Made by a program: the position numbers and the translations under genes
Virus record (IMG/VR): IMGVR_UViG_2645727821_000010
Coordinates: 1 to 42,492 of that record
Strand: one strand, 5' to 3'
Length of the DNA: 42,492 nucleotides
Origin: a virus
Lineage: Duplodnaviria; Heunggongvirae; Uroviricota; Caudoviricetes
Notes under the pieces: model-generated
What the model was told of the DNA's origin: nothing
The model's input: the letters and a program-made list of their open reading frames with translations, nothing else
Database searches by the model: none
Shown here: piece after piece, positions 17,819-37,783 of the stretch
How positions within the stretch are numbered: position 1 is the stretch's first letter
Layout of the letters: each line of letters starts with the position of its first letter

Positions 17819-17838
17819 TTGACAACTGACAAGTGACT
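17819..17838 (+). promoter_or_regulatory. late-promoter-like motif TTGACAACTGACAAGTGACT upstream of mat
   Basis: Shares the ACAAGTGACT core with the sites upstream of prt and lyz. Confidence 0.4.
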
Positions 17839-17979
17839 TCAGTCAGAATCATCACATGCCCGGTACGGATGGATCCCTTTTCAAATATTCCATGGACGGC
17901 ACAGTCTGAGTACCGGGCGCTACCTTCAGTTGTATTGCTAAGCCGCCGCTGGTGGCTTTTCTTTTTTATAAGGGGCGCT

Positions 17980-18621
17980 ATGGATAAGAAAATATGCGTT
18001 GTTTCGATGAGCGTCGGCAAACCGGCGTCAATGACTGCCGCATGGATCAACAATGAGCTGATAATGGCTGAGCGGACCAGCTACCCTGAACGCCGCCGCG
18101 ATATGGAACTCCAGCTGCTGCGCGAATTGCGAGAAAAAGAGGAAAAGGGTTTTATCGTGCTGGTGGAAGAGGAAAACAGCTTTATTACGGGTCGAGTTGG
18201 CCAGCGTGTAAGGTTGCGCGATCCCTTCATGAACGGCAGGCCGGTACTAATTGAAGCAATGCAGATTTACAAGGAGCTGGAACGCCAGAAAGCGATCAAG
18301 TTACCGCGCAAAGAATCCGGCAAATACATCCTCCACCAAAGCATCTTCGATTCCGAACACGACAAAAAAGGCGATGAATTTTTCAACATCAACTGGAGCG
18401 AAATAACGACAGAGCACGTTCTGTCGTTGTTATGCTGCTTCGCAACGGAATATAACAACGTTGCAAGCGCCGACTACATCAGGGCAATGGCTGGAGAAGT
18501 TGAGGCCCGCCAGGAACCATCGTTACTAAGCCCTCTGATTAACATAATTCGCGGAACCCAATGTCTAGCCGACAAGCGAGTTCCTCAAGGCTTACTTACC
18601 GGCAAAGAAAACTATTTATAA
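17980..18621 (+). CDS. mat: Mat-like particle maturation protein (alternative starts at 17833 or 17869)
   Basis: ORF track 17833..18621; ATG at 17980 has AAGGGG upstream; assigned by synteny (after ref), not by recognised sequence. Confidence 0.5.
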   Translation: MDKKICVVSMSVGKPASMTAAWINNELIMAERTSYPERRRDMELQLLRELREKEEKGFIVLVEEENSFITGRVGQRVRLRDPFMNGRPVLIEAMQIYKELERQKAIKLPRKESGKYILHQSIFDSEHDKKGDEFFNINWSEITTEHVLSLLCCFATEYNNVASADYIRAMAGEVEARQEPSLLSPLINIIRGTQCLADKRVPQGLLTGKENYL

Positions 18622-18711: not shown

Positions 18712-19752
18712 ATGATGAATATTAAGCCGCTGAAAATTAGGAACAAGGTCATGAAGCCTCATAAAGCATCATTAAACCCTGACCTAACCGCAAGGAATGT
18801 ACTTACATACAGTCATTGGGATTTTGTCGAACTCTGGTTAAAGCGAAACGAAAAAGATGAGGCTCTTTTTTATTGGGAGCAAGCAAAAGTATTTAATCAG
18901 GCGGCCAATGGTTTACCCAACCAATCAGCCCCACTTTTGCACTATTATTCATTCATGAATGCAGTAAAGGCGTTACTTTCATCTCGCAATATAAACTTCA
19001 AACAGCATCATGGTGTTGCTAGGGGTGAAAATGCAGCCCAAATTGATAACTTATCTGATATAAAAGTAAAAATAAAAAATGAGGGTATACTTCCGTCTTT
19101 TTCAAAATATATTGACGGCACCTCTCATGAGGGGGTGTACAATATAAAAAACCTTTTTTCTGGATTGCCATATATTCATCGTACATATTGCCTTACTTAT
19201 GATGTAACTGATGATATATTTATTCCACTGATCGATGCTGAGTTCGTTTTGAATGAGTCAGACAATAGCCTGTTTTTCACTGCGATTTTATCCAAGGATT
19301 TTCGGTTCGACACAGTTTTCGACATTCTACCGCCAGCGTTCGAATTGTTTGAAAGAGAAAAGTACAAAATAAAATCAGTAGAATCATTACTTGATTTTAA
19401 TGAAAATCAATCGTCCAACATGCCGCAATTAACTGAATTTCATCAAAAAATAAGAAGAAATCTTTACTATATCAATGGCGCAGAGACTCTTTGGTATCTC
19501 AAACGTAAAAACAATCAATCTGAGCATACTTCTGTTTCAATATCGCCATTGGTTATAACCCTAGCAGCTATGCATCGATTAAGTGAGCTATGTCGGTATG
19601 ACCCACTTAAGCTAAGACAGTTACTAAATGAAAAAGAAAACTGGATTATTGCTGAATTTATTCAACAATCTCCGTCACAGTTTATAGATGCAATTTCATC
19701 TGAAATTACTGGACACCAATTTCTTATCCCAAACGTAAGGTCTGCTTCTTAA
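18712..19752 (+). CDS. hypothetical protein, 346 aa, first gene of a low-GC accessory cassette; possible R-x6-H motif (R265...H272)
   Basis: ORF track; GGTGGAGGA ribosome-binding site; A/T-rich codon usage unlike the flanking P1 backbone; no family recognised with confidence. Confidence 0.7.
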   Translation: MMNIKPLKIRNKVMKPHKASLNPDLTARNVLTYSHWDFVELWLKRNEKDEALFYWEQAKVFNQAANGLPNQSAPLLHYYSFMNAVKALLSSRNINFKQHHGVARGENAAQIDNLSDIKVKIKNEGILPSFSKYIDGTSHEGVYNIKNLFSGLPYIHRTYCLTYDVTDDIFIPLIDAEFVLNESDNSLFFTAILSKDFRFDTVFDILPPAFELFEREKYKIKSVESLLDFNENQSSNMPQLTEFHQKIRRNLYYINGAETLWYLKRKNNQSEHTSVSISPLVITLAAMHRLSELCRYDPLKLRQLLNEKENWIIAEFIQQSPSQFIDAISSEITGHQFLIPNVRSAS

Positions 19753-20261
19753 TGAATATATATATCGCATGCGCTTTAACTCATGTTCCAAGGGAAATTT
19801 TCCATGAGTACAGTAATTGGATTCACAGCCTTGCAAAAGGTTTATCTCAAAATAACAACGTAAAATATGCTTTGATAAATAGTGACCCAGAATTATCAAA
19901 GCGCCCTGAAAGTAACAAATCTAGACTTTGTTACATTTGGGACAGAGATATGGTTGAGAAATCTGATGTAATAATTGCAGAATGTAGTTTTCCATCAACA
20001 GGGCTAGGAATAGAGTTGCAGATTGCTGAACAGAAGAACATTCCTGTAATCATCTGTTATAAAGATTATGGGATAAATAAAACTAAAACCATTGAATACG
20101 TGAATCCAGATGAGACTACCCATAATCTACAAGTTGGCGAGGGTTTCATTTCTCATATGGTATTAGGACTACCAAACATCCTTGATGTCATATTATGTAA
20201 AGATATTGATAACACATGCAGGAAGCTAAAAATACTGTTAGATATGATTAACCATAATTAA
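19752..20261 (+). CDS. nucleoside 2-deoxyribosyltransferase-like (NDT/DNPH1-type flavodoxin-like fold) protein, 169 aa
   Basis: TAATG translational coupling to the upstream gene; N-terminal NIYIACAL and central SDVIIAECSFPSTGLGIELQIAEQKNIPVI resemble the NDT-family pattern with a candidate catalytic Glu88. Confidence 0.7.
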   Translation: MNIYIACALTHVPREIFHEYSNWIHSLAKGLSQNNNVKYALINSDPELSKRPESNKSRLCYIWDRDMVEKSDVIIAECSFPSTGLGIELQIAEQKNIPVIICYKDYGINKTKTIEYVNPDETTHNLQVGEGFISHMVLGLPNILDVILCKDIDNTCRKLKILLDMINHN

Positions 20262-21038: not shown

Positions 21039-24000
21039 TTATGCGTATTGTTGGATGACGGCCAGAACGTCCGCCACGTTGTGTTTTGTCTCGATAATCC
21101 ACCAGTTACCTGGGAAGTCGCTGTTCTTCGCCTTCGCTGGCAACCAGCGAGCGCCGAATTTCGCCTTGATTGCGTCTTTCGCACGGAAAAGAACCCCTTT
21201 CATGCCGGAGGCTTCCTGAAGCCCAAATACCTCGCCAGCGGCGAATTTTGGTGCGTACATCATCTTCAGGTCGGCGGTGGATACGCGATAATTCAGACCA
21301 AGAGACTGAGCTATGCTGGTGGCATCACCCTGTATTGATGATAACTCTTCTTGTTTCTCGTTTCTGGCAGCAATTTCTTCCTCCGTGATGTTGCCAAGGG
21401 CCAGGTTTATCCGATCAGCGTCTGCCTGTTTCTCTTCATCGGTGCGCCCGGCAAGTACCGTGTTAATTCTGTGCAATATCTCCACATGATTCTTGCGCAT
21501 GCTGAGCAATTCCGGCGTAACCTCGTTAAGGTCCACCAGCCCAAGGATGGCAAGGTCGGTAAACATTGATACCAGGTTGTAGGTCATGCGATAGCTGAGT
21601 TGCCCATAGGCTGATGGCAACTGCACCGCATCCATTTTATAGGCATCCATAAATTTAGAGCCGTCGTTTACGACATCCGCAATTGCCGGTGTGATTTTTC
21701 CTGTGGTGGCGGCCTCCCTGATTGCTGTTACCCACGATTGAGTCAGCGCGGCGACTGCATGATTCAGATTGACTTTCCGTTCTGCTGCAATGCGCGCGCT
21801 TGCTGCGTCCATTGCCTGCTTGATCTCGTCTTTATTGCTGTAAATGCCAATGGTGCCAAACTGTGCTGTGGTGATCTCATAATCTGACGCCCGGAACTCA
21901 TTGGTACCGAAAATGGCATTGGTGACTTCAAGTTCAGAATCCCCGTTACGAGTAGCCCCCTGGCTTGTTTTCTCCGGCATTCTGGCGATCGCATCCGCTA
22001 TTTTCTCCTGAATTGCTTCAGGGGATAGCGTATCTCCGTATGACGCGATTACATCGCCATAATTGGAGCCAAACAGTTCAACCAGGAATGCTTCTGCCGA
22101 ACGGATCTGGCGGTTATTCCCTTCCGACATCATACCAAGCACCCATTTTGCAATTGACGACTTCAGCGCGCCGTCACGGCGATCCGGGTAAACCGCATGC
22201 TTCAGTGGGTCCGTATAGGTACCAACAAAATCAATGCTATAGCCTGACTCTGTAGTCTGAACGCCGTATGAGTCAGTGATTTTGATCATGCCGCGCTGCT
22301 GGAAACGGTAGAAATCGTCACAGGAAACGATGTCGTTAATCCCGGCGATGGAGACGCCACCACTGATTTTCTGCATAACAGCATCTTCATCGGGAGTTAC
22401 ATCAACCTGTTTATCCAGCGTCTTCACATCCCAGTTACCAGATTTGGTGCCTTTGAAGGTGAAGATGATCTCCACGTCTGCGCGCTGGCTGTCGAAGTCC
22501 AGCGACTTAATGCGAACGATATCACCGGCACAATCGTAGTATTGGCCTACACGCCATGAGCGATCGCCGATAACAAGGAACTCACTCGCATGGTTAACCA
22601 GGTCAGGATCAACATCCAGAATGCCTTTATTTAATGCATCCTCCACCAGCGGGCGCAGGCGTTTGATATCCGTCGCGGCCTTCTGAGTACGGTTCAATAA
22701 TTTCTCATAGCGGGAGATGGCTTGAGAGATATTAGCCTTGCGCTGAATGGCGCTTTTCAACGACGCGCGATACTGTGCTAACAACATACGGTCTGTGTGA
22801 TGGACACTCCCCCAGCGTGCCTTCCAGTCTGCGTTATCCGCTGCCTTGGCCATTGCCGCCTGTTTGAATTTAGCTACCTCGGCGGTGGTCTTTTCAAGTT
22901 CCGCTTTGCTTCGCTCTAATTCAGCGGTAAGCACCTCCACATCCTCACCAGCTGCGTGCTGCGCCTTGATGTAGTTCTGAAGGTCGATAGTAGCCTGTTC
23001 TTTCTGGCGAGCGCGTTGCGCGGCTTTCGCCTTATCCATTTGAACCTGCATCATTGCCAGACGTTCGCCATCATCCTTAGCGGTATACATCTGCATTTCG
23101 ATCATATCGTTGGCGTCGGCGTTCTCCATTTCTGACTTATCTGAACGGAGGATATCGGAGATCCAGCCTGCTTTACGCTTCAGCGTCTTCAGTCGGTATT
23201 CATCGAAAGAACCCTTGCCGCAGTAGTAGTGAACGCGAACGCTTGCACGGTTGGAGCCAACTCGGGCACCGCGACCGTTTCGTTGCGCAATACTGGCTGG
23301 AGTCCATGGCAACGTCAGATGATGGATGTCAGTCGTTCCTCGATGCAGGTTGATACCCACCTCTGCCTTTTTGTTGCAGATGATGATCGGAGTCCGGCCC
23401 TCCTGGAAGTCGGCTGCAATCTTTTCCAGACCGCCCAACGACATTTCATTTTGCTGCGCGATATAGGCGTCATACAGAGCCATTTGCTCGTTGTATTTCG
23501 CTATCTGTGCATCTGTTGGTTCATCCGGTAACTCTTTCGGCGGTTTAACCGCTTTCAGTTTCTTACCGGTTTTACCTGCCTCGGCAACCGTCTGAGCATT
23601 CAGTATCCCCACCTTTGAAGGTTCAAGGTTAAGAGCATTGCAGATAATGCGCTTGAGCTTCTGGTGCTGCGTTTTTTCATCGGTGAAGATGATTTGCTTA
23701 CCTTCCGGGAAAAACTCCTTCAGCGTGGCAATCAGCTTCGCGTATTTGGGCGTAACGGGGTGAGTTACGGTCTGTTCGTCAATGCCAAACCTGGCCAGGC
23801 GCTTATTCACTTCCTGCTCGAACGCTTCCGGAACCTGCAACTGAATAAACTCGCCCTTATCTATCAGGGAGTATTGCGATTGCTGCGTGATTGAATCATC
23901 ACTGTCGTCGTCTTCGCTGGTGGCTTGTTTAGGCAAACTGTCTGCCAGCTGCTGCACCGCATCGGCGTACTCCGGCAGGAAACGATAGGTGATCCGGCGA

Positions 24001-27000
24001 TAGTACAGGTCCATGTCAGTACATACGCGGTCCATATCCCTGATTATTGAGAAGATCGGACGGGCTTTCTCGTGCTCAATCACGCCGTCTTCATTGACCG
24101 AGGTCGTTACACCATTGTTGGCTTTGGCCGCCGCTTCCGCCTGCTGACGCAATTCTTCATACGCCGCCAGTTGTTCTTCAGTAAGTGGTGCATCCTGCTG
24201 GTGTTCGTCCAGTTCCGGGATCTCCACGGTATCCTTAACGTCTTCCGCCGTTTTAAGCGTTGTCCAGCGATGGAATATGCCGCGCAGCGCATCAAGGTTT
24301 TCAAAACCCACCAGCGCCATTTTTTCTTCAACTTCGCCGCTGATTTTCTGTACCGTTTCCAGCCTGGTCTTGCCGAAGAATTTTACGAAGTCATCAGGAC
24401 TGTAGATCCCCATCTTCTGCCAGTATTCCTTCGGCAGAACATGAGAAAGCATGTTGTATGCATCGATCGGGGTGTTAACGACTGGTGTTGCAGTCAGGAG
24501 AACCGGTCCGCGCCCGCCATTCTTTTTCATCAAGTACGCGTTTTTGATTGCCATATCTCGCGCCGATTGCGCCACCGCGCTGGTGGGCAGATAGGCCAGC
24601 TGTGACGCTTCGCGACCATTTTTATAGCTATTGCGGTAGTTGTGGCCTTCGTCAGCAATCACGCTGTCGAAGCCCATATCCTCAAAGTACGGATACTTCT
24701 CTGCTTTTTCGGTACCGGTATCTGAATACTCCGACAATACCCGGCGACGCGCCGCCTCTTTGCGGTGGGAGTCGGAGTCCATTGCGCTGGCTACGCGCCC
24801 GGCGGCAACGAAGTCATAAAGCATGTCTTGTGCATGCTCATCTACGGTGTCATCACGTAGCGGAATGCGGGCGTATTGTTCTTTGGTAAACACGACTGCA
24901 CGGTAATTTGAGTGCGGGATCGCGTTCATCCGCGCCGTGATAGTGGCTTCATCTGCCAGCTTAAGAGCATCGCGCATAACTGGAGTGCCATCAGTACCAA
25001 GAACAGGTTTACCGTTCTCATTGAGCACCGGCACCTGGCGAATCTGATCGCCATCCATCAGCACATCAAGACCGACGAACAAGTAGTTACTGAATGCCTC
25101 TTCACTCAGGAATTCTTTTGCTTCGTAATACCAATTTTCCAGCACTGATTTAGGCACTACATACGCAGTACGGGTGGAGCGACCGTTCTCATAGTTGAAC
25201 GCCTCAAGCGCCAGCGCGGTCGTGGTTTTACCCAGCCCGGTGCCGAAGCCCAGGATGCCGCGCCCATCTTCGGACAGTCGGCGCACCTCGCTATTCTGGT
25301 AATCAAATGGCTGGCGCTTACCGCTTAATCCCTTCAACCCAAGCGGATCGCCAGAGTGTTCATACGGGATATTGCTATTGAACACATCGTTGTATTTGGC
25401 AACCAGCTCATCGTAGCGATCGTGCGTCTTGATCCACTTATTGAACTGGTCCTCAAGCAGTGCCATCTGCTCGCGGTAGCCGTTCGCCGTCGCGCTATCT
25501 TTGCCACCGATACGCGCACCATTGAGATACTTTTCCAGCTGTGCCGGGAACCCGGTCGCGTTTTCACCTGATTTACGGTCCCACTCGTAGCGAATCTCAC
25601 CTGTTTCTTTATCCTTGCGCTGGACGACACCGTATCGGTGCCCGACGAACAGACCATCACCACCGTGATAGGTGTCAGAAACCATTTCGTCGCCTTCCAG
25701 CTGCACTGACTGCACATAGCGCAGATCCGGATAGCCGTTTTCCTGCAAAAATTCCAGAATGACGGAACGGTCGAACCAACGGCTATTGAGCTTAAACCGG
25801 ATATTCTCTGCTGGCGTCTTGATGCGCTTCTCTTCGATAGCTGCCAGCTGATTAAGGACGTTGTTCTTTACTGGACCGTCGGGGAGTGTGGCGAGGAATT
25901 CCTGTTTTGGAGCCACTATCTCGTTAATGTCGCCGCTGGTGGCGCGGGCGAACGGAACAATCCCGCCATACGGTGAAACCGCAATACCAGGGGTGCTGGC
26001 CAATAAATTAAGCAACTCTTCATCACTGGCTGGCAGTTCGCCGGTAAACGCAAGGCGGAAATCATCGAGCTGGATTGGATCGCGGGGGAGATCGCTATAG
26101 AGATAACGCAGGGTGTCCTGATAGCTGGTGGAGTCATAACTTGCGCTGGAATCATGCGTAACCAGCTTCCCTGTCAGCTCGTCAGAAATAGTGCCATCCA
26201 GCTTAATTGCACCACGGAAAGCAAACCAGGCGCGCGCACCGCTCCCCGACAATTTCGCTATCGGACCGCGACCGGGGTTACCAAAACGGTCAATCTCTGC
26301 CTGCAAACGGGATACCAGAGAAAGGCGCTGCTGTTCGATTTGTTCAGCACTATGCCCGGCGGCCTTCATGTCCTGATATTCAATTAACATCCGGCCAATC
26401 ATCGCCCCGCGATACAAGCGTTCACGGTATTTTTCAGGCTGGCTGTTAATCCAGTCCACCAGCTGCACCATATCGTCGCTGATTGATGTGGTGTACTTAT
26501 CGCGGACATTTGCCATCTGGGTAAATGTCATGCCGAGACGGCCTTCTGTTGTAGTCAGGTTACGCTGAAGAGCCTCCCAGCTATCCGCGCCATAACTGGC
26601 AGCATCGATCTTAAGTTCCTTCCCGGCATCAGCTTCAATCCAGCGACCACCAGCATATTTTTGCCATACGCCATTAATCAGGCGCATTTCCCCTTCACCA
26701 ACAACGTCTGCGGTCGGTGACGGTTCAGCCATATCGAGCAAAGACCAGTCGATACGGCTTTCGAAACGATGAATCAGCTTCGCTTTAAGAGCCTGGTTAT
26801 CAATCTGACCGTCGGCACGAACCTCAATACGCCCCTGGAAGCCCTTTTCCTGGGTGCCATGAACAAACCGGCGGCCGTCCTTTTCAAACCACTTGCCAGA
26901 AATAAACGTTGGCCAAAGCACATTTGCCGATTCGAGAGTGCTTTCATCCACCAGGGGGATTTTCTCAGCCATCTCTGCCGGATGTTTGCGCATCAGCACC

Positions 27001-27806
27001 ACATCAACAACTGTACTGGTCCCGTTTGCGTCAAAAGTACCGGTAGGCAAGCGGTGGGCACCAAGAAATTCAGCTTTCCGTGATAGGCGCAGGCGTAACC
27101 GCTTCATGTTTGAACCTGAAACAATGGACGGCGGCACAATCACGCACATGAATCCGCCTGGCTTTATCTTGTCCAGCATGCGGAGCATGAAGTAAGAACC
27201 CATGTCCGTTTCTTCTGCGTAAGGCTTATCGATGTTGCGTGTGTTATCACGACCACCGAACGGAACGTTACCCACAACATGGTCGAATGAATCGTTAGGC
27301 GTGCTTACAGCCAGTTGTTCGAACGGAGAAATCTGTACGCTGTCTTCCGGGTGCAACAGCTGGTTTATACGACCGGAAACACTGCTGATCTCAGTCGCGG
27401 TCATCACCGTACCAACCGGTTTTGTCTCATTAAAAACGCCGGTTCCCGCCGATGGTTCCAGAGTGTTACCTACGTCCGCGCCGTAGAGCTTCATGATCTC
27501 CCAGACACCTTCAGCGATCGGCTTTGGTGTGTAATATTCGGAGACGGACCCGCCAATGCCGCCTTCGCCGGTGTACCCAGCCAGGATCTGGCGCTGTTCA
27601 TCTGTCAGTGTCGCGCCGTCCACCAGCGAATTAAGCAAATCTATCGCCTTCTGATTCGCCTCCCGGCGTAGTCGGTCATAGCTTTTGCCTTCCACCTTTT
27701 CCACGCCGTATCTAATCGGCGCTCGGTGAGATGTTATTGCACTAATGTATTTCAATATTTCGCTGACACTTGAACAGCGAAACACCCCCATAGATAGCTT
27801 GTTCAT
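21039..27806 (-). CDS. darB: DarB, defence against restriction protein B (methyltransferase-helicase), 2255 aa
   Basis: Single 6.8-kb ORF; size matches P1 DarB as I recall it; AAGGA ribosome-binding site. Confidence 0.9.
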   Translation of the reverse strand: MNKLSMGVFRCSSVSEILKYISAITSHRAPIRYGVEKVEGKSYDRLRREANQKAIDLLNSLVDGATLTDEQRQILAGYTGEGGIGGSVSEYYTPKPIAEGVWEIMKLYGADVGNTLEPSAGTGVFNETKPVGTVMTATEISSVSGRINQLLHPEDSVQISPFEQLAVSTPNDSFDHVVGNVPFGGRDNTRNIDKPYAEETDMGSYFMLRMLDKIKPGGFMCVIVPPSIVSGSNMKRLRLRLSRKAEFLGAHRLPTGTFDANGTSTVVDVVLMRKHPAEMAEKIPLVDESTLESANVLWPTFISGKWFEKDGRRFVHGTQEKGFQGRIEVRADGQIDNQALKAKLIHRFESRIDWSLLDMAEPSPTADVVGEGEMRLINGVWQKYAGGRWIEADAGKELKIDAASYGADSWEALQRNLTTTEGRLGMTFTQMANVRDKYTTSISDDMVQLVDWINSQPEKYRERLYRGAMIGRMLIEYQDMKAAGHSAEQIEQQRLSLVSRLQAEIDRFGNPGRGPIAKLSGSGARAWFAFRGAIKLDGTISDELTGKLVTHDSSASYDSTSYQDTLRYLYSDLPRDPIQLDDFRLAFTGELPASDEELLNLLASTPGIAVSPYGGIVPFARATSGDINEIVAPKQEFLATLPDGPVKNNVLNQLAAIEEKRIKTPAENIRFKLNSRWFDRSVILEFLQENGYPDLRYVQSVQLEGDEMVSDTYHGGDGLFVGHRYGVVQRKDKETGEIRYEWDRKSGENATGFPAQLEKYLNGARIGGKDSATANGYREQMALLEDQFNKWIKTHDRYDELVAKYNDVFNSNIPYEHSGDPLGLKGLSGKRQPFDYQNSEVRRLSEDGRGILGFGTGLGKTTTALALEAFNYENGRSTRTAYVVPKSVLENWYYEAKEFLSEEAFSNYLFVGLDVLMDGDQIRQVPVLNENGKPVLGTDGTPVMRDALKLADEATITARMNAIPHSNYRAVVFTKEQYARIPLRDDTVDEHAQDMLYDFVAAGRVASAMDSDSHRKEAARRRVLSEYSDTGTEKAEKYPYFEDMGFDSVIADEGHNYRNSYKNGREASQLAYLPTSAVAQSARDMAIKNAYLMKKNGGRGPVLLTATPVVNTPIDAYNMLSHVLPKEYWQKMGIYSPDDFVKFFGKTRLETVQKISGEVEEKMALVGFENLDALRGIFHRWTTLKTAEDVKDTVEIPELDEHQQDAPLTEEQLAAYEELRQQAEAAAKANNGVTTSVNEDGVIEHEKARPIFSIIRDMDRVCTDMDLYYRRITYRFLPEYADAVQQLADSLPKQATSEDDDSDDSITQQSQYSLIDKGEFIQLQVPEAFEQEVNKRLARFGIDEQTVTHPVTPKYAKLIATLKEFFPEGKQIIFTDEKTQHQKLKRIICNALNLEPSKVGILNAQTVAEAGKTGKKLKAVKPPKELPDEPTDAQIAKYNEQMALYDAYIAQQNEMSLGGLEKIAADFQEGRTPIIICNKKAEVGINLHRGTTDIHHLTLPWTPASIAQRNGRGARVGSNRASVRVHYYCGKGSFDEYRLKTLKRKAGWISDILRSDKSEMENADANDMIEMQMYTAKDDGERLAMMQVQMDKAKAAQRARQKEQATIDLQNYIKAQHAAGEDVEVLTAELERSKAELEKTTAEVAKFKQAAMAKAADNADWKARWGSVHHTDRMLLAQYRASLKSAIQRKANISQAISRYEKLLNRTQKAATDIKRLRPLVEDALNKGILDVDPDLVNHASEFLVIGDRSWRVGQYYDCAGDIVRIKSLDFDSQRADVEIIFTFKGTKSGNWDVKTLDKQVDVTPDEDAVMQKISGGVSIAGINDIVSCDDFYRFQQRGMIKITDSYGVQTTESGYSIDFVGTYTDPLKHAVYPDRRDGALKSSIAKWVLGMMSEGNNRQIRSAEAFLVELFGSNYGDVIASYGDTLSPEAIQEKIADAIARMPEKTSQGATRNGDSELEVTNAIFGTNEFRASDYEITTAQFGTIGIYSNKDEIKQAMDAASARIAAERKVNLNHAVAALTQSWVTAIREAATTGKITPAIADVVNDGSKFMDAYKMDAVQLPSAYGQLSYRMTYNLVSMFTDLAILGLVDLNEVTPELLSMRKNHVEILHRINTVLAGRTDEEKQADADRINLALGNITEEEIAARNEKQEELSSIQGDATSIAQSLGLNYRVSTADLKMMYAPKFAAGEVFGLQEASGMKGVLFRAKDAIKAKFGARWLPAKAKNSDFPGNWWIIETKHNVADVLAVIQQYA

Positions 27807-31453: not shown

Positions 31454-31550
31454 AAAGACCTCATAAGCGAATTTTTTACGCTCCAGGACAAACACCCATT
31501 CACAGCCAATACCGACTGACTCGATCCCTTTAGAAGGCACAGGATAATGC

Positions 31551-31564
31551 AAATCACTTGTTAG
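31551..31564 (-). promoter_or_regulatory. late-promoter-like motif (minus strand CTAACAAGTGATTT) upstream of lyz
   Basis: Same ACAAGTGA core as the pacA, mat and prt sites. Confidence 0.4.
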
Positions 31565-31586
31565 CTACGTTTCAAAGATATACATT

Positions 31587-31603
31587 ATTGCTCTAATTAA
31601 TTT
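31587..31603 (+). promoter_or_regulatory. C1 operator ATTGCTCTAATTAATTT upstream of ssb
   Basis: Matches the C1 operator consensus at 16 of 17 positions. Confidence 0.75.
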
Positions 31604-31622
31604 ATTTTATTAGGTAAGATAA

Positions 31623-32111
31623 GTGGCACAACGCGGTGTAAACAAAGTCATCCTGATTGGTACCCTGGGGCAAGACCCGGAGATCAGGTATATACCAAAT
31701 GGCGGAGCGGTCGGAAGACTCAGCATCGCAACGAATGAATCATGGCGCGACAAGCAAACGGGCCAACAGAAAGAGCAAACAGAATGGCATAGAGTCGTTT
31801 TGTTCGGGAAACTTGCTGAAATTGCGAGTGAGTATTTACGAAAAGGTTCTCAGGTCTACATCGAAGGGAAACTTAAAACCCGTAAGTGGACAGATGACGC
31901 CGGTGTAGAACGTTACACGACGGAAATTATCGTCAGCCAGGGCGGAACTATGCAAATGATCGGCGCCCGCCGCGACGATTCACAGTCCTCAAATGGCTGG
32001 GGGCAATCAAACCAACCTCAAAACCACCAGCAATACAGCGGTGGCGGCAAACCTCAGAGCAGCGCCAATAACGAACCTCCAATGGACTTTGACGACGATA
32101 TTCCGTTTTAG
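31623..32111 (+). CDS. ssb: Ssb, single-stranded DNA-binding protein, 162 aa (GTG start)
   Basis: Translation closely resembles E. coli SSB ([22 protein letters not shown]..., acidic DDDIPF tail). Confidence 0.95.
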
Positions 32112-32151
32112 AGTTAACTTGTGAGTTATTTGTAAATAGTTCATACACAGG

Positions 32152-32180
32152 CCCCTGTTAATACAGGGGATTTTTATTTC
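32152..32180 (+). terminator. intrinsic terminator CCCCTGT-TAAT-ACAGGGG followed by ATTTTTATTT
   Basis: 7-bp stem and T-tract 40 bp after the ssb stop. Confidence 0.75.
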
Positions 32181-32359
32181 TAGTAACTATAAGAGGTGTT
32201 AATTATTAATTGACAATCTTTAGTGTTTCGCGCACCTTGCAAGTATCCAATATTTACTGATTGTGGACGCATAAAGAAGATCCACAGCGTTACAAATTTG
32301 TATTTCTTTCTTCAGCAATTAAGCAGGCGACTTGCTCTATCCTGCCCAAAGGAACACGT

Positions 32360-33715
32360 ATGACACACTGCAAAGAAAATACTTGGTATGAGCGTCAAGG
32401 GTACAATACCACCCGCCCGAATGAGATAAGGTCGGAGTATGAACGTGATCTTTCCCGGTTAATCCACTCTTCCGCTTTTAGGAGATTACAATCGAAGACG
32501 CAGGTGTTGGGATTGGGCGAAAGCGATTTCTACCGTACGCGTCTAACTCACTCTATGGAAGTAGCGCAAATTGGCGGCGGTATCTTGTCTCAGTTGTCTA
32601 AGCGCGATACAGATGAGGGGGGTAAATTCTTACCTGACCCAAGCCTGATGCAGGCTATCTGCCTTGCTCATGATATAGGACATCCCCCCTTCGGTCATGG
32701 TGGTGAGGTCGCACTAAACTACTGCATGAGATCCTATGGCGGCTTTGAAGGTAACGGGCAGACACTGCGTATACTCTCCAAACTGGATAAGTACACCGAA
32801 ACCAATGGGCTGGATCCCACCCGTAGACTTATTTTAGGCGTACTGAAATATCCAGCAAGCTATTCAGAGGTCGTCAATGAGAGGGCTTACAGCCAGTTAC
32901 AGCCAAGAAGCAATGAGTGGTTGTTTAAATCATCCGAATTTAAGCCCCCGAAATGTTACCTGGACTCTGAGGAGAACACTGTTAGATTCGCACTCCAACC
33001 TTTTGATAGTGATGATGTTAAGTTATTCAAAACGGTAAAAACTACCGCGTTGAATAAGCACAAGGAAACAATATATAAAGCACTGGATACAACGATTATG
33101 GACTTGGCTGATGAGATATCCTACTCACTCCATGATCTTGAAGACGCAATTTCTCTGAAGATGATCGACAAAAAAATGTGGGAGGAGCACTTCGAGGACA
33201 AATCCCATTTATTTGCAGCTTGCCAATGCGACTCGTTTAATCTAAAAGCCGATGATGTAGCTGAAAAACTGTTCGGCGAAAGTTATCTACGCAAGGAGTG
33301 CATAGGGACACTTGTTCATCTGATGATCACTAGCGTTAAGCTTGAAGTGCAGAACTCTGATTTCAAAAGTAAAATTTTACGCTATAAAGTGGCACTTCCT
33401 GCCGCGGTAGAAGAGTTACGTAAAGCCATTTTTGAGCTGGTTAGGAACAAAGTTATTCAGCACGAAAACGTCCAACTATTAGAGTTCAAAGGTCAGAAAC
33501 TGATTGTGGAACTATTCAATGTACTGGCAAATGACCCAATACGTTTTCTCCCGACAGAAACTCGAAAGAAATATAATCAAGAGGAAGCAAAAGGTGATGA
33601 TAAAAAAATGCGCGTCATTTGCGACTATGTTTCAGGCATGACAGATGATTACGCTACTCGACTGTATGAGAAAATATTTGTACCGAGAAAAGGCTCTATT
33701 TTTGATAGACTCTGA
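32360..33715 (+). CDS. dgt: dGTPase-like dNTP triphosphohydrolase (HD domain), about 451 aa
   Basis: Motifs RTRLTHSMEVAQIG and HDIGHPPFGH match the Dgt/HD-hydrolase family; ATG at 32360 preceded by AAGGA; internal start of ORF 32261..33715. Confidence 0.85.
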   Translation: MTHCKENTWYERQGYNTTRPNEIRSEYERDLSRLIHSSAFRRLQSKTQVLGLGESDFYRTRLTHSMEVAQIGGGILSQLSKRDTDEGGKFLPDPSLMQAICLAHDIGHPPFGHGGEVALNYCMRSYGGFEGNGQTLRILSKLDKYTETNGLDPTRRLILGVLKYPASYSEVVNERAYSQLQPRSNEWLFKSSEFKPPKCYLDSEENTVRFALQPFDSDDVKLFKTVKTTALNKHKETIYKALDTTIMDLADEISYSLHDLEDAISLKMIDKKMWEEHFEDKSHLFAACQCDSFNLKADDVAEKLFGESYLRKECIGTLVHLMITSVKLEVQNSDFKSKILRYKVALPAAVEELRKAIFELVRNKVIQHENVQLLEFKGQKLIVELFNVLANDPIRFLPTETRKKYNQEEAKGDDKKMRVICDYVSGMTDDYATRLYEKIFVPRKGSIFDRL

Positions 33716-33884
33716 TTTTTTTCTATTATATAGTACGTAGCCGGGTTCCAGAACCGCATAAAATTAGATCTGGATATAATTCATTTAATTATCTGTTATA
33801 TGCCAAACATAACGATATATAATAGTGGATTAGATGTTACAACTTGACGCAGAATAAATAGCTTTTATTGGCGCATGATGCAAA

Positions 33885-33906
33885 CCCCGCAATGAAGCGG
33901 GGTTTT
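33885..33906. terminator. bidirectional terminator AAA-CCCCGC-AATGAA-GCGGGG-TTTT
   Basis: 6-bp GC stem flanked by an A-run and a T-run, directly 3' of the minus-strand gene 33923..34291. Confidence 0.65.
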
Positions 33907-33922
33907 AACTGTGGTAAATGAG

Positions 33923-34291
33923 TTATAATCTTTTAATCAGGCTCTCAATATTAGTTGGTTCAAAGTAATGCTTATTAACCTCTCCATTTATGAGGAAACC
34001 GTCTTTTAGTAGTCGGTCTAGCTCACGCTCTGCTTCTTTGTTGAACATACCTGGATATATTCTCTTGTACAACTGAAACGTACCATTCATATTCCTGTAA
34101 GCATTCTCAGCAATTTCAATGGAGATTTCATTTCCGGCGTTAAATACAGGAATGAATATCTCAAGAATATCATTCTTTAACTTCTGTTTAAGTTTCTTTT
34201 TTTCAACAATATTAGAATAAAAGATACCTAAAAAAAATGTGCAGATACCAGGAAGCCAATTATTAACGAAAACCTCAGACAAAGCGTCCAC
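33923..34291 (-). CDS. small hypothetical membrane-anchored protein, 122 aa (GTG start), low GC
   Basis: ORF track; N-terminal hydrophobic helix WLPGICTFFLGIFYSNIV; GGAG upstream of the GTG. Confidence 0.45.
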   Translation of the reverse strand: MDALSEVFVNNWLPGICTFFLGIFYSNIVEKKKLKQKLKNDILEIFIPVFNAGNEISIEIAENAYRNMNGTFQLYKRIYPGMFNKEAERELDRLLKDGFLINGEVNKHYFEPTNIESLIKRL

Positions 34292-34497
34292 TATCTTACT
34301 CCAGAGTTAAGATTGATTCTCATAACGCACAAACTCCGTTCAAGGCGATTTTTATATTACAAACTATACATAAACGCTGATCAATATCTCCAGATTTTGT
34401 GTGCCTGTGCATGAATATGCACTAATCATAATCGACCAGAACTTCCGTTAATCGCTAAACTCGAACGATTCTAGCCACATAGACGATCTGTTAGTAT

Positions 34498-34806
34498 CTA
34501 ATATACAAACTGATCCACATGATCACCCAAATCATCGTCGTCGTCCTCATCGCCACCCTCTACTGCTGGCCAATCAACAAACCAGCCAGCGTAAAGATGC
34601 AGCGTTCGGAGAACATCACTTGCGGGAGCATCAAGGGTGTTAACGAATCCCATATAGCTATTGGGATTTGCCCCAGCTATGGCTTCAGCGATCATGTCCT
34701 CGGTAATGTCACCGGAGATAATGCTTAAACGCCCGGAAACTTCTTCATTATCATCAAATTCGATAATGGCATCTCCGCCTAATGGCGCTGCGATTTTAAT
34801 CTGCAT
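34498..34806 (-). CDS. hypothetical acidic protein, 102 aa, immediately downstream of ddrB
   Basis: ORF track; AAGGAG ribosome-binding site; Asp/Glu-rich C-terminus. Confidence 0.5.
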   Translation of the reverse strand: MQIKIAAPLGGDAIIEFDDNEEVSGRLSIISGDITEDMIAEAIAGANPNSYMGFVNTLDAPASDVLRTLHLYAGWFVDWPAVEGGDEDDDDDLGDHVDQFVY

Positions 34807-37783
34807 TATTTAGCTCCTTTGCCACACCTAATAACAGTTCCAGCAATCCGTCACCATTCATCAGTGATGCGGCAGCGGCCTCTTTGTCATGATACAACTG
34901 AAGAGCCATAGAGAATACTTCCGTTGCTGACGTTTTGGAAATAGTCGGTGATTTCTGCCGAATTTTCCCGGTGTTACTTACTGAGGCTGGCGGGTATACC
35001 TTCGCCATATAAATATTACTCAATCGAGATCTGAAGCACCATTCAGGCTTGCCACGCCCACCGATATTGACGAAAGATGGCTTATCCCCTTCAACATTGG
35101 CCTTCAGGAATGACCGGGCTTTCTCTAACAAACCAGGGTTACTGTACTCAAGATGATGACCCAGCTCGTGCCACAGTGCACTTGCATTTTCATCGTTCAA
35201 ATTGACAGCAACAACACCATTAAGATTTGCATATGCCCTTCCCTGGTGGTGAACTACCTTTGATAAGGTCGATATTTTCCCGCCGGTCAGGCGATAAATA
35301 TCAGCAAGTTCCTTGCGCAGGTCTATCCCACCATTCTGTCCAGCGCGGACTTCTTCCACTTCTTCTGTGATAAAAGAGTCGGCCCACTCAAGAGCTTTTT
35401 CTTCAGATACGGATGAGTTTGCGATCGCACTGTTCATGGCAGATAACACTTTCTCGTGGACCGAACCCATACTTCGCTGATTCATTTGCCAGCGTGTCTG
35501 CGGGTTATATGAGAATCGCTTAAGTAGTTGGTCAAGCTGCTCAAGTTCTTCTTCACTGACATACTTTTTAGCCTCACCAATAATGCCAGGGAGAATATTG
35601 CCGTTAGGATTAAACGCTCGCGAAAGGAAGAGTTTCAGCGCCCCCATGCCCTCCGATGCTTCAATATCACCAATAACCCGGTTAACAATGGCCGCACTCT
35701 TCGGATTAGCATCCGCCAACGCTCTGGCTACGATTTGCAGGGACGATACGACCTCACGCTGCATATCAGTCCTGATCTCATCAATAAACTCTGGCGTTAT
35801 GCCGTGCTCTTTAAGGATATCCCGGCCTTCCGCCGTTACCCCATCGATATCACCGACATGTTTATTAACACGACTTTGCAATGCCTTAAATGCCTTCAGA
35901 ATTCCACGTGCATCATCCGCTTTACTAACGGCCTTCCTGAATGCTGGCAAGAAGTCTGAGTTAACCTCATTTTGTTGATCGGCCCACTGAATGGAGGCTT
36001 CTTTCATCTCGTCCAGAGTCAGATCACCCAACGCGGTATGGTCTGTGAATATGAGCGATAACCTCTGAACCATTTCTGCCAATGGTGATGCTGATTGCGC
36101 CGCGCTAAGGAATGCTTTCACTCTGGTTGGGCGAATGGAAAACCAGTCAATAGCTGGTGGCATATCTCCGTTTTTTATCGCCTGCGCTATCTCATCAAAG
36201 CCGTCGCGCCCAAGGGAGGATGCGTGATTTAACAATCCGCGAAGTAACGAATTGCTGATACCGAATAATCGGCACCATTTTTTCACGTCGGCAACAGGCA
36301 TTCGAACAAAATGCGCAAGCACTTGTACAAGCTGTTCATCCTGGGGATCTGTGCGGGAAAGCAGCCTGATCAGATGAATAATGTCTTTGATGCCGGATGC
36401 CCGATGTAATAGCAAACTGGTATACGGAGCAACACCGTTGTAACTACCGCCGGAAACGGACTCGAAAAGACCGCCGGATATCCCTTGCATGCCTTCGTTT
36501 TCCAGTTCCTGAGACACCTGGCGAAGGATATCCTGTAACGACACATCGCCGCCGCCAAACATATCCCCCAGCGCCTGGCCCTGGTGCTGTAACTCATCAT
36601 TGATACGTTGAGCCATCAACTTAAAGGCGGTGGCCATACGCTTCGCGCTACGGTTATTCGCGACGATGAACAACGCGAGTGCTTTCACTTCCGGGGCCGT
36701 TTCGCTGAACATATCCCCCTGAGCAATAACATCGGTAATATGCTGGCCTGACTCCTTCGATTGCCTTACCAGGTCTACCGCATCTTTCAATGCCTCCAGC
36801 GCCTTTTTATCGAGGCTATCCGCTGTCTCAATGCCATCAACAATAGTTGTCACAGCCTGCTTGTGCGCTTCTCCTGATAAAGCCTGCATCTGGACAAAAT
36901 CATTGGCTGCCGCATTAAGCGCCGTCAGAACATTACGCATATCCGGATCAGGTTCTTCTGCAACCATCCTTACCAAGCGCGCATCCTTATATGCCTTGGC
37001 AAAGATCGCGTTTTGTATACGGTCTACAAGTTGCCGTGTTGGTCGCCCATCTTCAGTTACAAGGCCAGCCGCCTGTGTGGCACCAACTTGCGTCATAAAT
37101 CCGCGAATAAACGCGTCATTACTGCGGCTAAGCAGATCTCCACTTTCTGACGGGTTAAACAACGCCATCATCGCCGGTGTTATGCTGTCGGCATCAACAA
37201 AAGCCTTTTCACTGGCTGCCATTTCCTGGAGATCAGAAATATTTGAGTCCTTGGCAAACTGAACACGGTCAACCTTCGTTAACCGGCGGCGCACCAGTAC
37301 CGGAGCCGTCATTGATTCAACCTTTTCAGGCCGTATGCCGAATTCGGTCGCATGTTCAATCAGGTACTCCCGATACCGATCCGCATTACCGTCCTGATAG
37401 GCTTTAATGATCCCCATGGTCCGCCCATTACCTGACTCAACGGCATTGTCCTCACCAATTATTGGCGCGCCATGGCTGGATAAACCGGAATCGGTAAGCT
37501 GGGCAGGACGCAAATCCTTGGATATCTGGTTGACCTGAAGAAGGCTGGATGCGCGGGTCCGGTCGCGCGGCTGAAGTTCCTGGGGATAGTCTGGATTAAT
37601 TTTCCCATCCAGAGTATTGGATACCAAAAGAACTGAGGCATCGACGATATCAAACGCTGTTTTTACCTCGTCTCCCTTCGCTGTCACCACATACGAAACC
37701 CGCCCATAATCGGGCAGGTTCTTTAGCAGCTCGATCAGCGTTTCTATGCTGGTGGCCATTACCACCTGATCGCTTAAGCTCAT
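34796..37783 (-). CDS. ddrB: DdrB-like large virion-associated antirestriction component, 995 aa
   Basis: Size and position after ddrA in the darA operon, as in P1. Confidence 0.75.
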   Translation of the reverse strand: MSLSDQVVMATSIETLIELLKNLPDYGRVSYVVTAKGDEVKTAFDIVDASVLLVSNTLDGKINPDYPQELQPRDRTRASSLLQVNQISKDLRPAQLTDSGLSSHGAPIIGEDNAVESGNGRTMGIIKAYQDGNADRYREYLIEHATEFGIRPEKVESMTAPVLVRRRLTKVDRVQFAKDSNISDLQEMAASEKAFVDADSITPAMMALFNPSESGDLLSRSNDAFIRGFMTQVGATQAAGLVTEDGRPTRQLVDRIQNAIFAKAYKDARLVRMVAEEPDPDMRNVLTALNAAANDFVQMQALSGEAHKQAVTTIVDGIETADSLDKKALEALKDAVDLVRQSKESGQHITDVIAQGDMFSETAPEVKALALFIVANNRSAKRMATAFKLMAQRINDELQHQGQALGDMFGGGDVSLQDILRQVSQELENEGMQGISGGLFESVSGGSYNGVAPYTSLLLHRASGIKDIIHLIRLLSRTDPQDEQLVQVLAHFVRMPVADVKKWCRLFGISNSLLRGLLNHASSLGRDGFDEIAQAIKNGDMPPAIDWFSIRPTRVKAFLSAAQSASPLAEMVQRLSLIFTDHTALGDLTLDEMKEASIQWADQQNEVNSDFLPAFRKAVSKADDARGILKAFKALQSRVNKHVGDIDGVTAEGRDILKEHGITPEFIDEIRTDMQREVVSSLQIVARALADANPKSAAIVNRVIGDIEASEGMGALKLFLSRAFNPNGNILPGIIGEAKKYVSEEELEQLDQLLKRFSYNPQTRWQMNQRSMGSVHEKVLSAMNSAIANSSVSEEKALEWADSFITEEVEEVRAGQNGGIDLRKELADIYRLTGGKISTLSKVVHHQGRAYANLNGVVAVNLNDENASALWHELGHHLEYSNPGLLEKARSFLKANVEGDKPSFVNIGGRGKPEWCFRSRLSNIYMAKVYPPASVSNTGKIRQKSPTISKTSATEVFSMALQLYHDKEAAAASLMNGDGLLELLLGVAKELNNAD

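Follow-up and report, generated by a model that had tools for sequence, protein, structure and literature searches.

The gene that follows ssb in this P1-like IncY phage-plasmid very probably encodes a single-protein anti-phage dGTPase of the SpdGTPase/G177 type, carried as a cargo cassette between ssb and hxr. This interpretation stands but is already known: the NCBI PGAP name of the protein is "anti-phage deoxyguanosine triphosphatase", and a 2025 DefenseFinder survey (preprint) names dGTPase as a common defence in the P1-like phage-plasmids of E. coli. A literature search found no paper mentioning WP_000148486. The analysis covered a stretch of 42,492 nucleotides, referred to below as the window; the features discussed are collected in the Table.

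Table. Features of the ssb-hxr locus and its surroundings (positions in the window)
Feature	Position	Strand	Evidence
C1 repressor operator (Ossb/Op21) controlling ssb (context)	31587..31603	+	one mismatch to the C1 consensus; annotated likewise in P1 and P7
ssb, conserved P1 backbone, left border of the variable locus	31623..32111	+	Pfam SSB, E = 3.6e-40
Variable cargo segment, 2386 bp	32112..34497	.	blastn breakpoints, GC
Intrinsic terminator after ssb: 7-bp G+C-rich stem, 4-nt loop, T-run	32152..32178	+	terminator scan, fold
Shine-Dalgarno AAGGA, 6 nt 5' of the dGTPase ATG	32349..32353	+	read from the sequence
Anti-phage dGTPase (dGTP triphosphohydrolase) CDS, 451 aa	32360..33715	+	NF041026, PADLOC, PDB 9P8W, PGAP name in NZ_CP031351
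Hairpin between the convergent dGTPase gene and ORF122, likely bidirectional terminator	33882..33905	.	folds
ORF122, 122 aa, N-terminal hydrophobic helix, second independent cargo gene	33923..34291	-	phrog_26730 (unknown function)
hxr, Xre-like putative repressor, conserved P1 backbone, right border	34498..34806	-	P1 annotation
ddrB, first large gene of the dar/ddr anti-restriction block (context)	34796..37783	-	Pfam ddrB-ParB, E = 5.2e-39; P1 annotation

The dGTPase gene and its relatives

The ORF listing gives the reading frame as 32261-33715 (+), a span whose start is merely the first TTG following a stop codon. The biological start of the gene is the ATG at 32360, and PGAP calls the same CDS (451 aa, WP_000148486.1) in plasmid NZ_CP031351, which is 100% identical. 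Two Pfam domains, HD (PF01966, 33.6 bits) and HD_assoc (PF13286, 74.9 bits), scored above their gathering scores. The ORF is real and intact. The original prediction had placed a Dgt-type HD-domain dNTP triphosphohydrolase at 32150-33720. The enzyme type was borne out by the two domains and by the antiphage dGTPase profile described below, and the gene is real, but the range given also takes in the upstream terminator and the leader.

Profile searches separated the protein from the housekeeping enzyme. The NCBIfam profiles NF041026 'antiphage_dGTPase' (571 bits, cut-off 400) and NF003701 (561.8 bits, cut-off 383) were both covered over their whole length, and the PADLOC dGTPase model PDLC02374 gave 494.9 bits. 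In contrast, the housekeeping Dgt model NF003429 (PRK04926) gave 142.3 bits against a cut-off of 405, which places the protein outside that equivalog. Assignment to the clade defined by anti-phage activity, and not to housekeeping Dgt, is supported by the sequence comparisons.

Alignment with SpdGTPase of Shewanella putrefaciens CN-32 (PDB 9P8W) yielded E = 3.3e-158, with 260 of the 436 aligned residues identical (59.6%); residues 16-451 of the query were aligned with residues 11-462 of the chain. Tal et al. delimited a defence-clade band by at least 45% identity to SpdGTPase over at least 90% of the length, and the phage-plasmid protein falls within it; 53% of the homologues in the band of at least 45% identity adjoin defence systems (Tal et al.). 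This comparison with a characterised defensive dGTPase, together with the NF041026 match, upheld the earlier view that the gene belongs to a known anti-phage family. The active-site block AHDIGHPPFGHGGE, residues 103-116 of the dGTPase, is the same as residues 99-112 of SpdGTPase, and the catalytic residues are intact: H104-D105 form the HD motif and H113/E116 the HE dyad. In SpdGTPase the HD motif is H100/D101, and the D101A mutation leads to loss of defence (Tal et al.). Since AHDIGHPPFGHGGE is identical in the two proteins, D105 of the dGTPase corresponds to D101.

SpdGTPase is thus a full-length, single-gene homologue (451 vs 462 aa) with the same AHDIGHPPFGHGGE block; it differs in about 40% of its residues and in being chromosomal in another host, whereas the present gene resides on a phage-plasmid. 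SpdGTPase depletes cellular dGTP and confers strong protection against T7 (Tal et al. 2021/2022); the enzyme hydrolyses dGTP in vitro on its own and forms a hexamer (9P8W structure: Yamaguchi et al. 2025, preprint). Four dGTPases of this kind, Ec G177, Sp, Pl and Ms, each protected against phage when expressed alone, and the E. coli G177 enzyme (Table S5) did so in MG1655 (Tal et al.).

With a chromosomal E. coli protein the dGTPase shares 80% identity, and the first 133 residues of that protein are 98.5% identical to E. coli G177 dGTPase; this comparison is limited to the 133 residues of available G177 sequence. The G177-type chromosomal alleles WP_001514832 / WP_057061554 share 80% protein identity and 79% DNA identity over 32302-33719 with the cassette, and are given the same PGAP name. 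They lie in an island by yjcB/pdeC, and upstream of them is a block of PfkB-NDT / QueC / Ogg / Dam-methyltransferase genes. From this arrangement the P1 cassette has taken only the dGTPase gene and a 58-nt stretch of its leader, and ORF122 has been added. The islands of the chromosomal relatives contain methyltransferase, glycosylase and toxin-antitoxin genes as well as integrases.

Two further systems are related at a greater distance. CloA of the Clover system is likewise an HD-domain dGTPase effector that starves the phage of dGTP and has catalytic HD and HE residues, but the CloA chains 9P8S-V align only with dGTPase residues 22-168 (E about 2e-24). No CloB-like Pol-beta-type nucleotidyltransferase was found beside the gene, the neighbours being ssb, ORF122 and hxr, and the locus is therefore not a Clover system. 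CloA forms octamers that are inactive alone and are activated by dTTP; the enzymes of the SpdGTPase clade form hexamers and are active by themselves. E. coli Dgt (PDB 4X9E/6OIY) shares superfamily and chemistry (dGTP to deoxyguanosine and triphosphate) but is distant: the PDB match spans only dGTPase residues 13-124 (E = 6e-24), and Dgt and SpdGTPase are about 24% identical (Tal et al.). Dgt shows no preference for defence islands.

A variable locus between ssb and hxr

In blastn comparisons the sequence was 97% identical to P1 and P7 on the ssb side as far as 32109/32113, and 98-99% identical on the hxr side from 34499 on. Between these breakpoints homology to P1 and P7 was interrupted; as the original prediction had supposed, P1 has no such gene at this position. 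The cargo segment fills the exact gap from the ssb stop codon to the hxr stop codon and has a GC content of 39.8%, as against 47.8% for the window. The gene had been described as sitting between ssb and the ddrB/darA block; this was right on the ssb side, but the immediate neighbours on the right are ORF122 and hxr, not ddrB.

The ssb-hxr interval is the published variable region 2 of P1-like phage-plasmids, for which low GC has been described (PMC9603915). The slot is occupied by isaA-IS1-isaB in P1 and by the porin gene nmpC in P7. The insertion point is the same to the nucleotide; the cargo here is a defence gene, not IS1-associated genes or a porin. In further elements the slot is taken up by porins, a Tad2-like protein, integrases or genes of unknown function. 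PADLOC gave no match for this other cargo, and its assignment to known defence systems was dropped; the Tad2-like anti-defence domain of one slot variant was the sole defence-related domain found among it. The dGTPase, located in the variable cargo locus of a phage-plasmid, thus sits in an accessory region. Since it is missing at this position in P1 and P7, sequence comparison identifies it as acquired cargo and not as part of the P1 backbone. Transposon-like borders were rejected: on neither side of the cassette were there meaningful repeats, whether direct or inverted. A search for structured RNA in the spacers returned only a sub-threshold GIR1 match (19 bits vs 100), which was dismissed.

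The cassette was found at identities of at least 99% in 64 of 5426 complete E. coli genomes, plasmid-borne every time. As hxr-ddrB is present in 480 of these genomes, the cassette occurs in about 13% of P1-like elements of E. coli; comparison of the locus across P1-like genomes, which the original prediction had proposed, therefore gave no indication of a conserved backbone gene. In PLSDB the dGTPase was found in 53 of 534 records, and plasmid copies with an intact ORF and at least 99% identity also came from E. albertii, E. fergusonii and Cronobacter. Of the records, ON470615 (vB_EcoM-673R5) alone was deposited as a phage genome, and in it the dGTPase gene is split by two homopolymer deletions. 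Counter-selection as the origin of this frameshift was rejected, because lyz and ddrB are likewise split in the same record, which points to sequencing error.

The original prediction also spoke of two candidate nucleotide-pool effectors on the element. The dGTPase half of this claim holds, whereas the NDT-like ORF (19752-20261) is a weak candidate: its Nuc_deoxyrib_tr score was 22.1 bits against a gathering score of 28.8, and PADLOC gave no match. This ORF assorts independently of the dGTPase cassette. It has no meaningful similarity to the PfkB-NDT fusion found by the chromosomal dGTPases (E = 0.045 over 38 residues), and a relationship between the two was discarded.

Signals around the gene and the neighbouring ORF122

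The gene is bounded, as had been predicted, by the ssb terminator on one side and by an AT-rich spacer (33716-33922, 34% GC) on the other. The terminator hairpin (32152-32169), which is followed by a T-run, folds with -12.9 kcal/mol (z = -2.97). The first approximately 70 nt 3' of ssb, terminator included, are common to other ssb contexts, so the name 'ssb terminator' is apt. It is predicted from the sequence to insulate the dGTPase gene from C1-controlled ssb transcription. No C1 operator was found between ssb and the dGTPase gene, the nearest being Ossb at 31587, and C1 control of the dGTPase was rejected on this ground.

On the other side of the gene the hairpin at 33882-33905 folds with -15.9 kcal/mol on the plus strand (z = -3.0) and with -17.4 kcal/mol on the minus strand (z = -5.0). 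It was not reported by the terminator consensus scan because its T-run is short. Judging from the folds, it can terminate transcription of both the dGTPase gene and the convergent ORF (33923-34291).

No convincing sigma-70 promoter was found in 32180-32359. The leader is conserved with the chromosomal homologues from 32302 onward, and the extended -10 upstream of the chromosomal homologue, TGCTATATT, reads TGCTCTATCC in the cassette. A sigma-70 promoter upstream of the dGTPase was rejected, there being no consensus-like site and the chromosomal extended -10 not being conserved; because of these two observations, expression of the dGTPase in the lysogen is presumptive. The site 32325-32343 matches the P1 late promoter, AAGTNACTT-N4-TANNNT, with two mismatches. 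Chance alone would give about 10 matches of this quality in the window, and LPlyz, an annotated late promoter, has one mismatch only; the site was not considered significant.

ORF122 has 34 homologue clusters and a conserved ILEIFIPVFNxG motif. Its AlphaFold model is all-helical, of moderate confidence (pLDDT 73.5), and had no informative or significant match in a viral fold search. Pfam, NCBIfam and PADLOC searches with ORF122 were likewise without a match, and no dGTPase adjoins its homologues in Salmonella, Yersinia and Marinomonas.

Possible function and alternative explanations

Extrapolating from the characterised relatives, we expect the protein to be enzymatically active, expressed in lysogeny and protective. 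A hexameric HD-domain hydrolase would cleave dGTP to deoxyguanosine and triphosphate. In the plasmid-prophage state the enzyme would keep or drive dGTP too low for fast-replicating superinfecting phages, among which T7-like phages, the target class of SpdGTPase, may be affected by analogy; low dGTP would then shield the resident element as well as its host. That the dGTPase gene would be transcribed on its own, outside the C1-repressed ssb unit, is suggested by the ssb terminator and the lack of a C1 operator. The cassette would most likely be exchanged by homologous recombination within the conserved sequences on either side, ssb and hxr.

An enzyme that depletes dGTP should also be a hindrance when the element itself replicates lytically. 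It is unlikely that a dedicated self-compatibility mechanism for lytic replication of the approximately 95-kb genome is part of the cassette or is required by it. Such a mechanism might lie in temporal control from the weak site at 32325-32343 that resembles a late promoter, or ORF122, which travels with the dGTPase, might modulate the enzyme. A third candidate is a trigger left unpulled by P1, suggested because P1 relies on host RNA polymerase from start to finish.

The role of the dGTPase could lie mainly in mobile-element competition or stabilisation of the element, the enzyme holding back other temperate phages or incoming plasmids in their replication, or tuning dNTP pools in the plasmid state, and not in defence against lytic phages. 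The same locus in relatives holds Tad2-like anti-defence cargo and porins, which shows that selection at this site acts on the element's own interests, and the survey authors suggest that such defences act against other mobile elements. This explanation invokes the same biochemical mechanism and so differs in target, not in kind; as the characterised relatives act against lytic phages and no evidence ties dGTPases to plasmid exclusion, we regard it as quite improbable. Still less probable is that the gene is silent or decaying cargo which has hitch-hiked with a recombination patch into a P1-like context where it is unexpressed or inactive. An intact ORF, kept at identities of at least 99% in the 64 complete genomes and in PLSDB records from other species, a full set of catalytic motifs and a good Shine-Dalgarno sequence all argue against decay. 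What speaks for it is the lack of a detected consensus promoter upstream, the altered -10-like element and the one frameshifted phage record, in which, however, the splitting of lyz and ddrB indicates sequencing errors.

The nearly constant co-travelling of ORF122 and the dGTPase in the cassette copies, and the existence of regulated two-gene dNTPase systems (Clover), raise the possibility that the dGTPase and a membrane-anchored ORF122 form a two-gene system, in which ORF122 would be a regulator, sensor or antidote, by analogy with CloA-CloB. We consider this very improbable. ORF122 as a partner of the dGTPase was rejected, since the genes are convergent with a terminator hairpin between them and the ORF122 homologues of Salmonella, Yersinia and Marinomonas stand without a dGTPase. 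Moreover, the close chromosomal relatives of the dGTPase lack ORF122, no Pfam domain, be it a nucleotidyltransferase or another, was found in ORF122, the G177 and Sp enzymes are protective by themselves, and one plasmid, which matches only to 33805, appears to have the dGTPase without ORF122. That the gene might encode a housekeeping or replication-linked phage enzyme, a Dgt analogue for pool balancing or fidelity in P1, is scarcely credible. The gene does adjoin ssb, a replication gene, but it is separated from it by a terminator, neither P1 nor P7 has it and about 87% of the P1-like elements lack it, its low GC marks it as foreign, and the Dgt model gave 142 bits where 405 were needed.

As a single-protein anti-phage dGTPase the cassette does not change existing knowledge: the family, its mechanism and its occurrence in P1-like elements are published and are built into the NCBI pipeline. 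It offers a clean, well-delimited case of a recombination-prone cargo slot of a phage-plasmid being used for a nucleotide-depletion defence, and its exact boundaries and frequency of about 13% are useful for plasmid annotation and for the choice of alleles to test. The question it raises is by what means a phage in lytic growth copes with a dGTP-depleting enzyme that it encodes. If the cassette did include or depend on a self-compatibility mechanism, it would be a natural model for keeping depletion-type immunity from harming the element that encodes it.

The dGTPase gene and its cargo slot

The window belongs to a P1-like IncY phage-plasmid. Its 31500-35000 stretch is 100% identical to p2RM9154-C1, an E. 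coli O145 plasmid (NZ_CP031351), and the flanks of this stretch are 97-99% identical to P1 and P7. Where the original prediction had placed a dGTPase-like gene, the ORF listing gave a single long ORF, 32261-33715 (+), with no competing ORF of note on the opposite strand. The TTG at 32261 was rejected as a mechanical call in favour of the ATG at 32360 with its AAGGA motif. PGAP calls the identical 451-aa CDS in NZ_CP031351 (WP_000148486.1). Both predicted flanking signals, the ssb terminator (the hairpin at 32152-32178) and an AT-rich spacer (34% GC, 3′ of the gene), are present.

Features of the window
Feature	Position	Strand	Remarks
YaaC-family gene + 169-aa NDT-like ORF	18712-20261	+	YaaC Pfam E = 5.9e-46; stop and start codons overlap
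Hairpin terminator with T-run, 3′ of ssb	32152-32178	+	terminator scan; -12.9 kcal/mol, z = -3.0
dGTPase gene	32360-33715	+	451 aa; ATG start; AAGGA at 32349-32353
Second strong hairpin, in the AT-rich spacer	33882-33905		between dGTPase gene and convergent ORF122
ORF122	33923-34291	-	122 aa; N-terminal hydrophobic helix; invariant ILEIFIPVFNxG motif

Homology to P1 and P7 stops at 32109/32113 and restarts at 34499, the breaks coinciding with the stop codons of ssb and hxr, two backbone genes that converge here. The intervening 2386 bp have 39.8% GC (vs 47.8% for the window). At this site P1 carries isaA-IS1-isaB and P7 carries nmpC instead of a dGTPase gene, as anticipated for P1. The site is ‘variable region 2’ in an earlier published comparison of P1-like elements (PMC9603915), whose authors also remark that such regions are low in GC. 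The suggested comparison of the locus, sampled among 534 PLSDB records with the same flanks, yielded several alternative cargos: OmpC/NmpC/PhoE-type porins, paired genes of unknown function, a Tad2-like anti-Thoeris domain protein and integrases, besides the P1 arrangement.

In another P1-like plasmid (locus L018, 1110-1784) the slot encodes a protein of 224 aa whose C-terminal domain is Tad2-like (Pfam E = 2.9e-22), named ‘MW1434 family type I TA system toxin’ by PGAP; the cargo of the slot thus includes, in different elements, both defence and counter-defence genes. In the mcr-1 plasmid pR15_MCR-1 (locus L020, 4771-7543) ssb and its terminator are followed by two tandem site-specific integrase genes, showing that larger mobile insertions use the slot too.

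No repeats flanking the cassette were found, so the simplest route of exchange would be homologous recombination within the conserved ssb and hxr flanks. DNA homology to the chromosomal allele (79%) is confined to 32302-33719; the cassette therefore gained the dGTPase gene with a 58 nt leader, and nothing more of that island.

Protein family and chromosomal relatives

The protein contains the Pfam domains HD and HD_assoc. It scored 571 bits with NF041026, ‘anti-phage deoxyguanosine triphosphatase’ (cut-off 400), 562 bits with NF003701 (cut-off 383) and 495 bits with the PADLOC dGTPase model, whereas all housekeeping dGTPase equivalogs of NCBIfam stayed far under their cut-offs (E. coli Dgt NF003429, 142 vs 405). 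These scores bear out the predicted Dgt-type HD-domain enzyme of an anti-phage family. Clover CloA was rejected as the identity: the nucleotidyltransferase partner is absent and similarity is restricted to the N-terminal region.

Among solved structures the top match (E = 3.3e-158) was 9P8W, a crystal structure of SpdGTPase from Shewanella putrefaciens CN-32, with 260 of 436 aligned residues identical (59.6%). The active-site block AHDIGHPPFGHGGE is identical in the two proteins, making D105 equivalent to Sp D101, whose replacement (D101A) abolished defence (Tal et al.). H113 and E116 align with the HE catalytic dyad. SpdGTPase homologues enriched beside defence systems are those at least 45% identical to it (Tal et al.), and by its sequence the window protein is well within this band. 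Its nearest E. coli relatives, at 80% identity, are encoded on chromosomes; over residues 1-133 they share 98.5% identity with the E. coli G177 dGTPase, synthesised by Tal et al. and protective. This comparison with characterised defensive enzymes had been proposed at the outset; judged from sequence, the window protein agrees with the anti-phage dGTPase family in every testable respect.

Chromosomal relatives 70-80% identical, from E. coli, Brenneria goodwinii and a metagenome, all lie just downstream of one common six-gene block (extracted loci L005 and L006, 3339-7515; L022, 1370-5651; L023, 1321-5626). It consists of a 110-aa ORF and genes for a fusion of a PfkB kinase with a nucleoside 2-deoxyribosyltransferase domain, for proteins resembling QueC and a nitroreductase, for a glycosylase of the Ogg type and for a methyltransferase of the Dam type. 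PADLOC matched only the QueC and methyltransferase parts. Possibly the block forms a module for DNA modification or defence that has yet to be described.

Other cargo genes

ORF122 corresponds to phrog_26730, annotated as unknown function, and had no match in Pfam, NCBIfam or PADLOC. Its predicted structure is helical (moderate confidence, pLDDT 73.5), and a structural search with the model returned no significant match. It occurs in Escherichia, Salmonella, Enterobacter, Yersinia, Vibrio, Marinomonas and Rheinheimera.

The YaaC/NDT-like pair occupies what we take to be the type III res-mod slot of P1. It lies downstream of a Ref-like nuclease gene and a 262-aa ORF (17833-18621), and upstream of a 2255-aa ORF (21039-27806). 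The pair had no PADLOC match, and the NDT-like ORF (19752-20261) was below threshold for Pfam Nuc_deoxyrib_tr (22.1 vs 28.8 bits). The pair occurs in 106 of the 5426 E. coli genomes, some of which (e.g. NZ_CP083706, NZ_CP060921) lack the dGTPase cassette; the two modules are thus independent cargo of two different variable regions. The original prediction counted both genes as candidate nucleotide-pool effectors; the present results lend no support to a shared role of this kind.

Distribution, alternatives and expression

Of 5426 complete E. coli genomes, 64 contain the cassette at ≥99% identity, in each case on a plasmid. Since hxr-ddrB occurs in 480, the share of carriers among P1-like elements of E. 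coli is about 13%. In PLSDB it is present in 53 records, E. albertii, E. fergusonii and Cronobacter sakazakii among them. All copies are near-identical, which indicates a single recent acquisition followed by spread. The sole cassette-bearing record deposited as a phage genome (ON470615, phage vB_EcoM-673R5; locus L002, 2860-4213) has a dGTPase gene interrupted by two one-base deletions, which fall in runs of G6 and C6; as lyz and ddrB are broken up too, sequencing error is likely.

A P1 backbone gene with a housekeeping or replication role, the outcome named as contrary to the original prediction, is excluded, because most P1-like elements lack the gene and the family scores contradict it. 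The many genomes with intact, near-identical copies argue against silent cargo. Genomic context speaks against a two-gene system with ORF122: homologues of ORF122 in Salmonella, Yersinia and Marinomonas have no adjoining dGTPase, those of Salmonella and Yersinia lie among typical mobile-element genes, and close dGTPase relatives occur without ORF122. We therefore treat ORF122 as an independent cargo gene. Use of the dGTPase in competition between mobile elements, rather than against lytic phages, was also considered; the mechanism would be unchanged and the target alone would differ.

The assignment to the anti-phage family is correct and already known: in dozens of records this very protein bears the PGAP name ‘anti-phage deoxyguanosine triphosphatase’, and a 2025 preprint, in which DefenseFinder was run on 846 P1-like contigs extracted from a collection of clinical Enterobacteriaceae, reported CapRel or dGTPase systems as common on E. 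coli P1-like phage-plasmids. We found no paper testing the WP_000148486.1 allele. The present analysis adds where precisely the cassette begins and ends, how frequent it is, where it came from, and the treatment of ORF122 as separate from the dGTPase.

With a terminator 3′ of ssb and no C1 operator found between ssb and the dGTPase gene, we argue that the gene lies outside the C1-repressed ssb unit. No promoter was identified upstream. A P1 late-promoter-like layout with two mismatches, AGGCGACTTGCTCTATCCT at 32325-32343 (+), lies 17 nt 5′ of the start codon; it has a 9-bp -22 element and, 4 nt further on, TATCCT, the hexamer of LPlyz. Chance alone would give about 10 such matches across the window, so the site is no more than a lead for expression timing.

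SpdGTPase strips the triphosphate from dGTP, and in T7-infected cells carrying it dGTP was undetectable and deoxyguanosine rose; T7 escape mutations map to gp5.7 and gp0.7, modifiers of host RNA polymerase (Tal et al.). Purified SpdGTPase is a hexamer that hydrolyses dGTP without a partner (SpdGTPase structure study). By analogy with these relatives, dGTP hydrolysis by an enzyme expressed from the plasmid prophage would shield both the host and the element against superinfection by lytic phages. P1 relies on the RNA polymerase of its host at all stages; if interference with that polymerase is the trigger, one may speculate that P1 itself might not set the dGTPase off.
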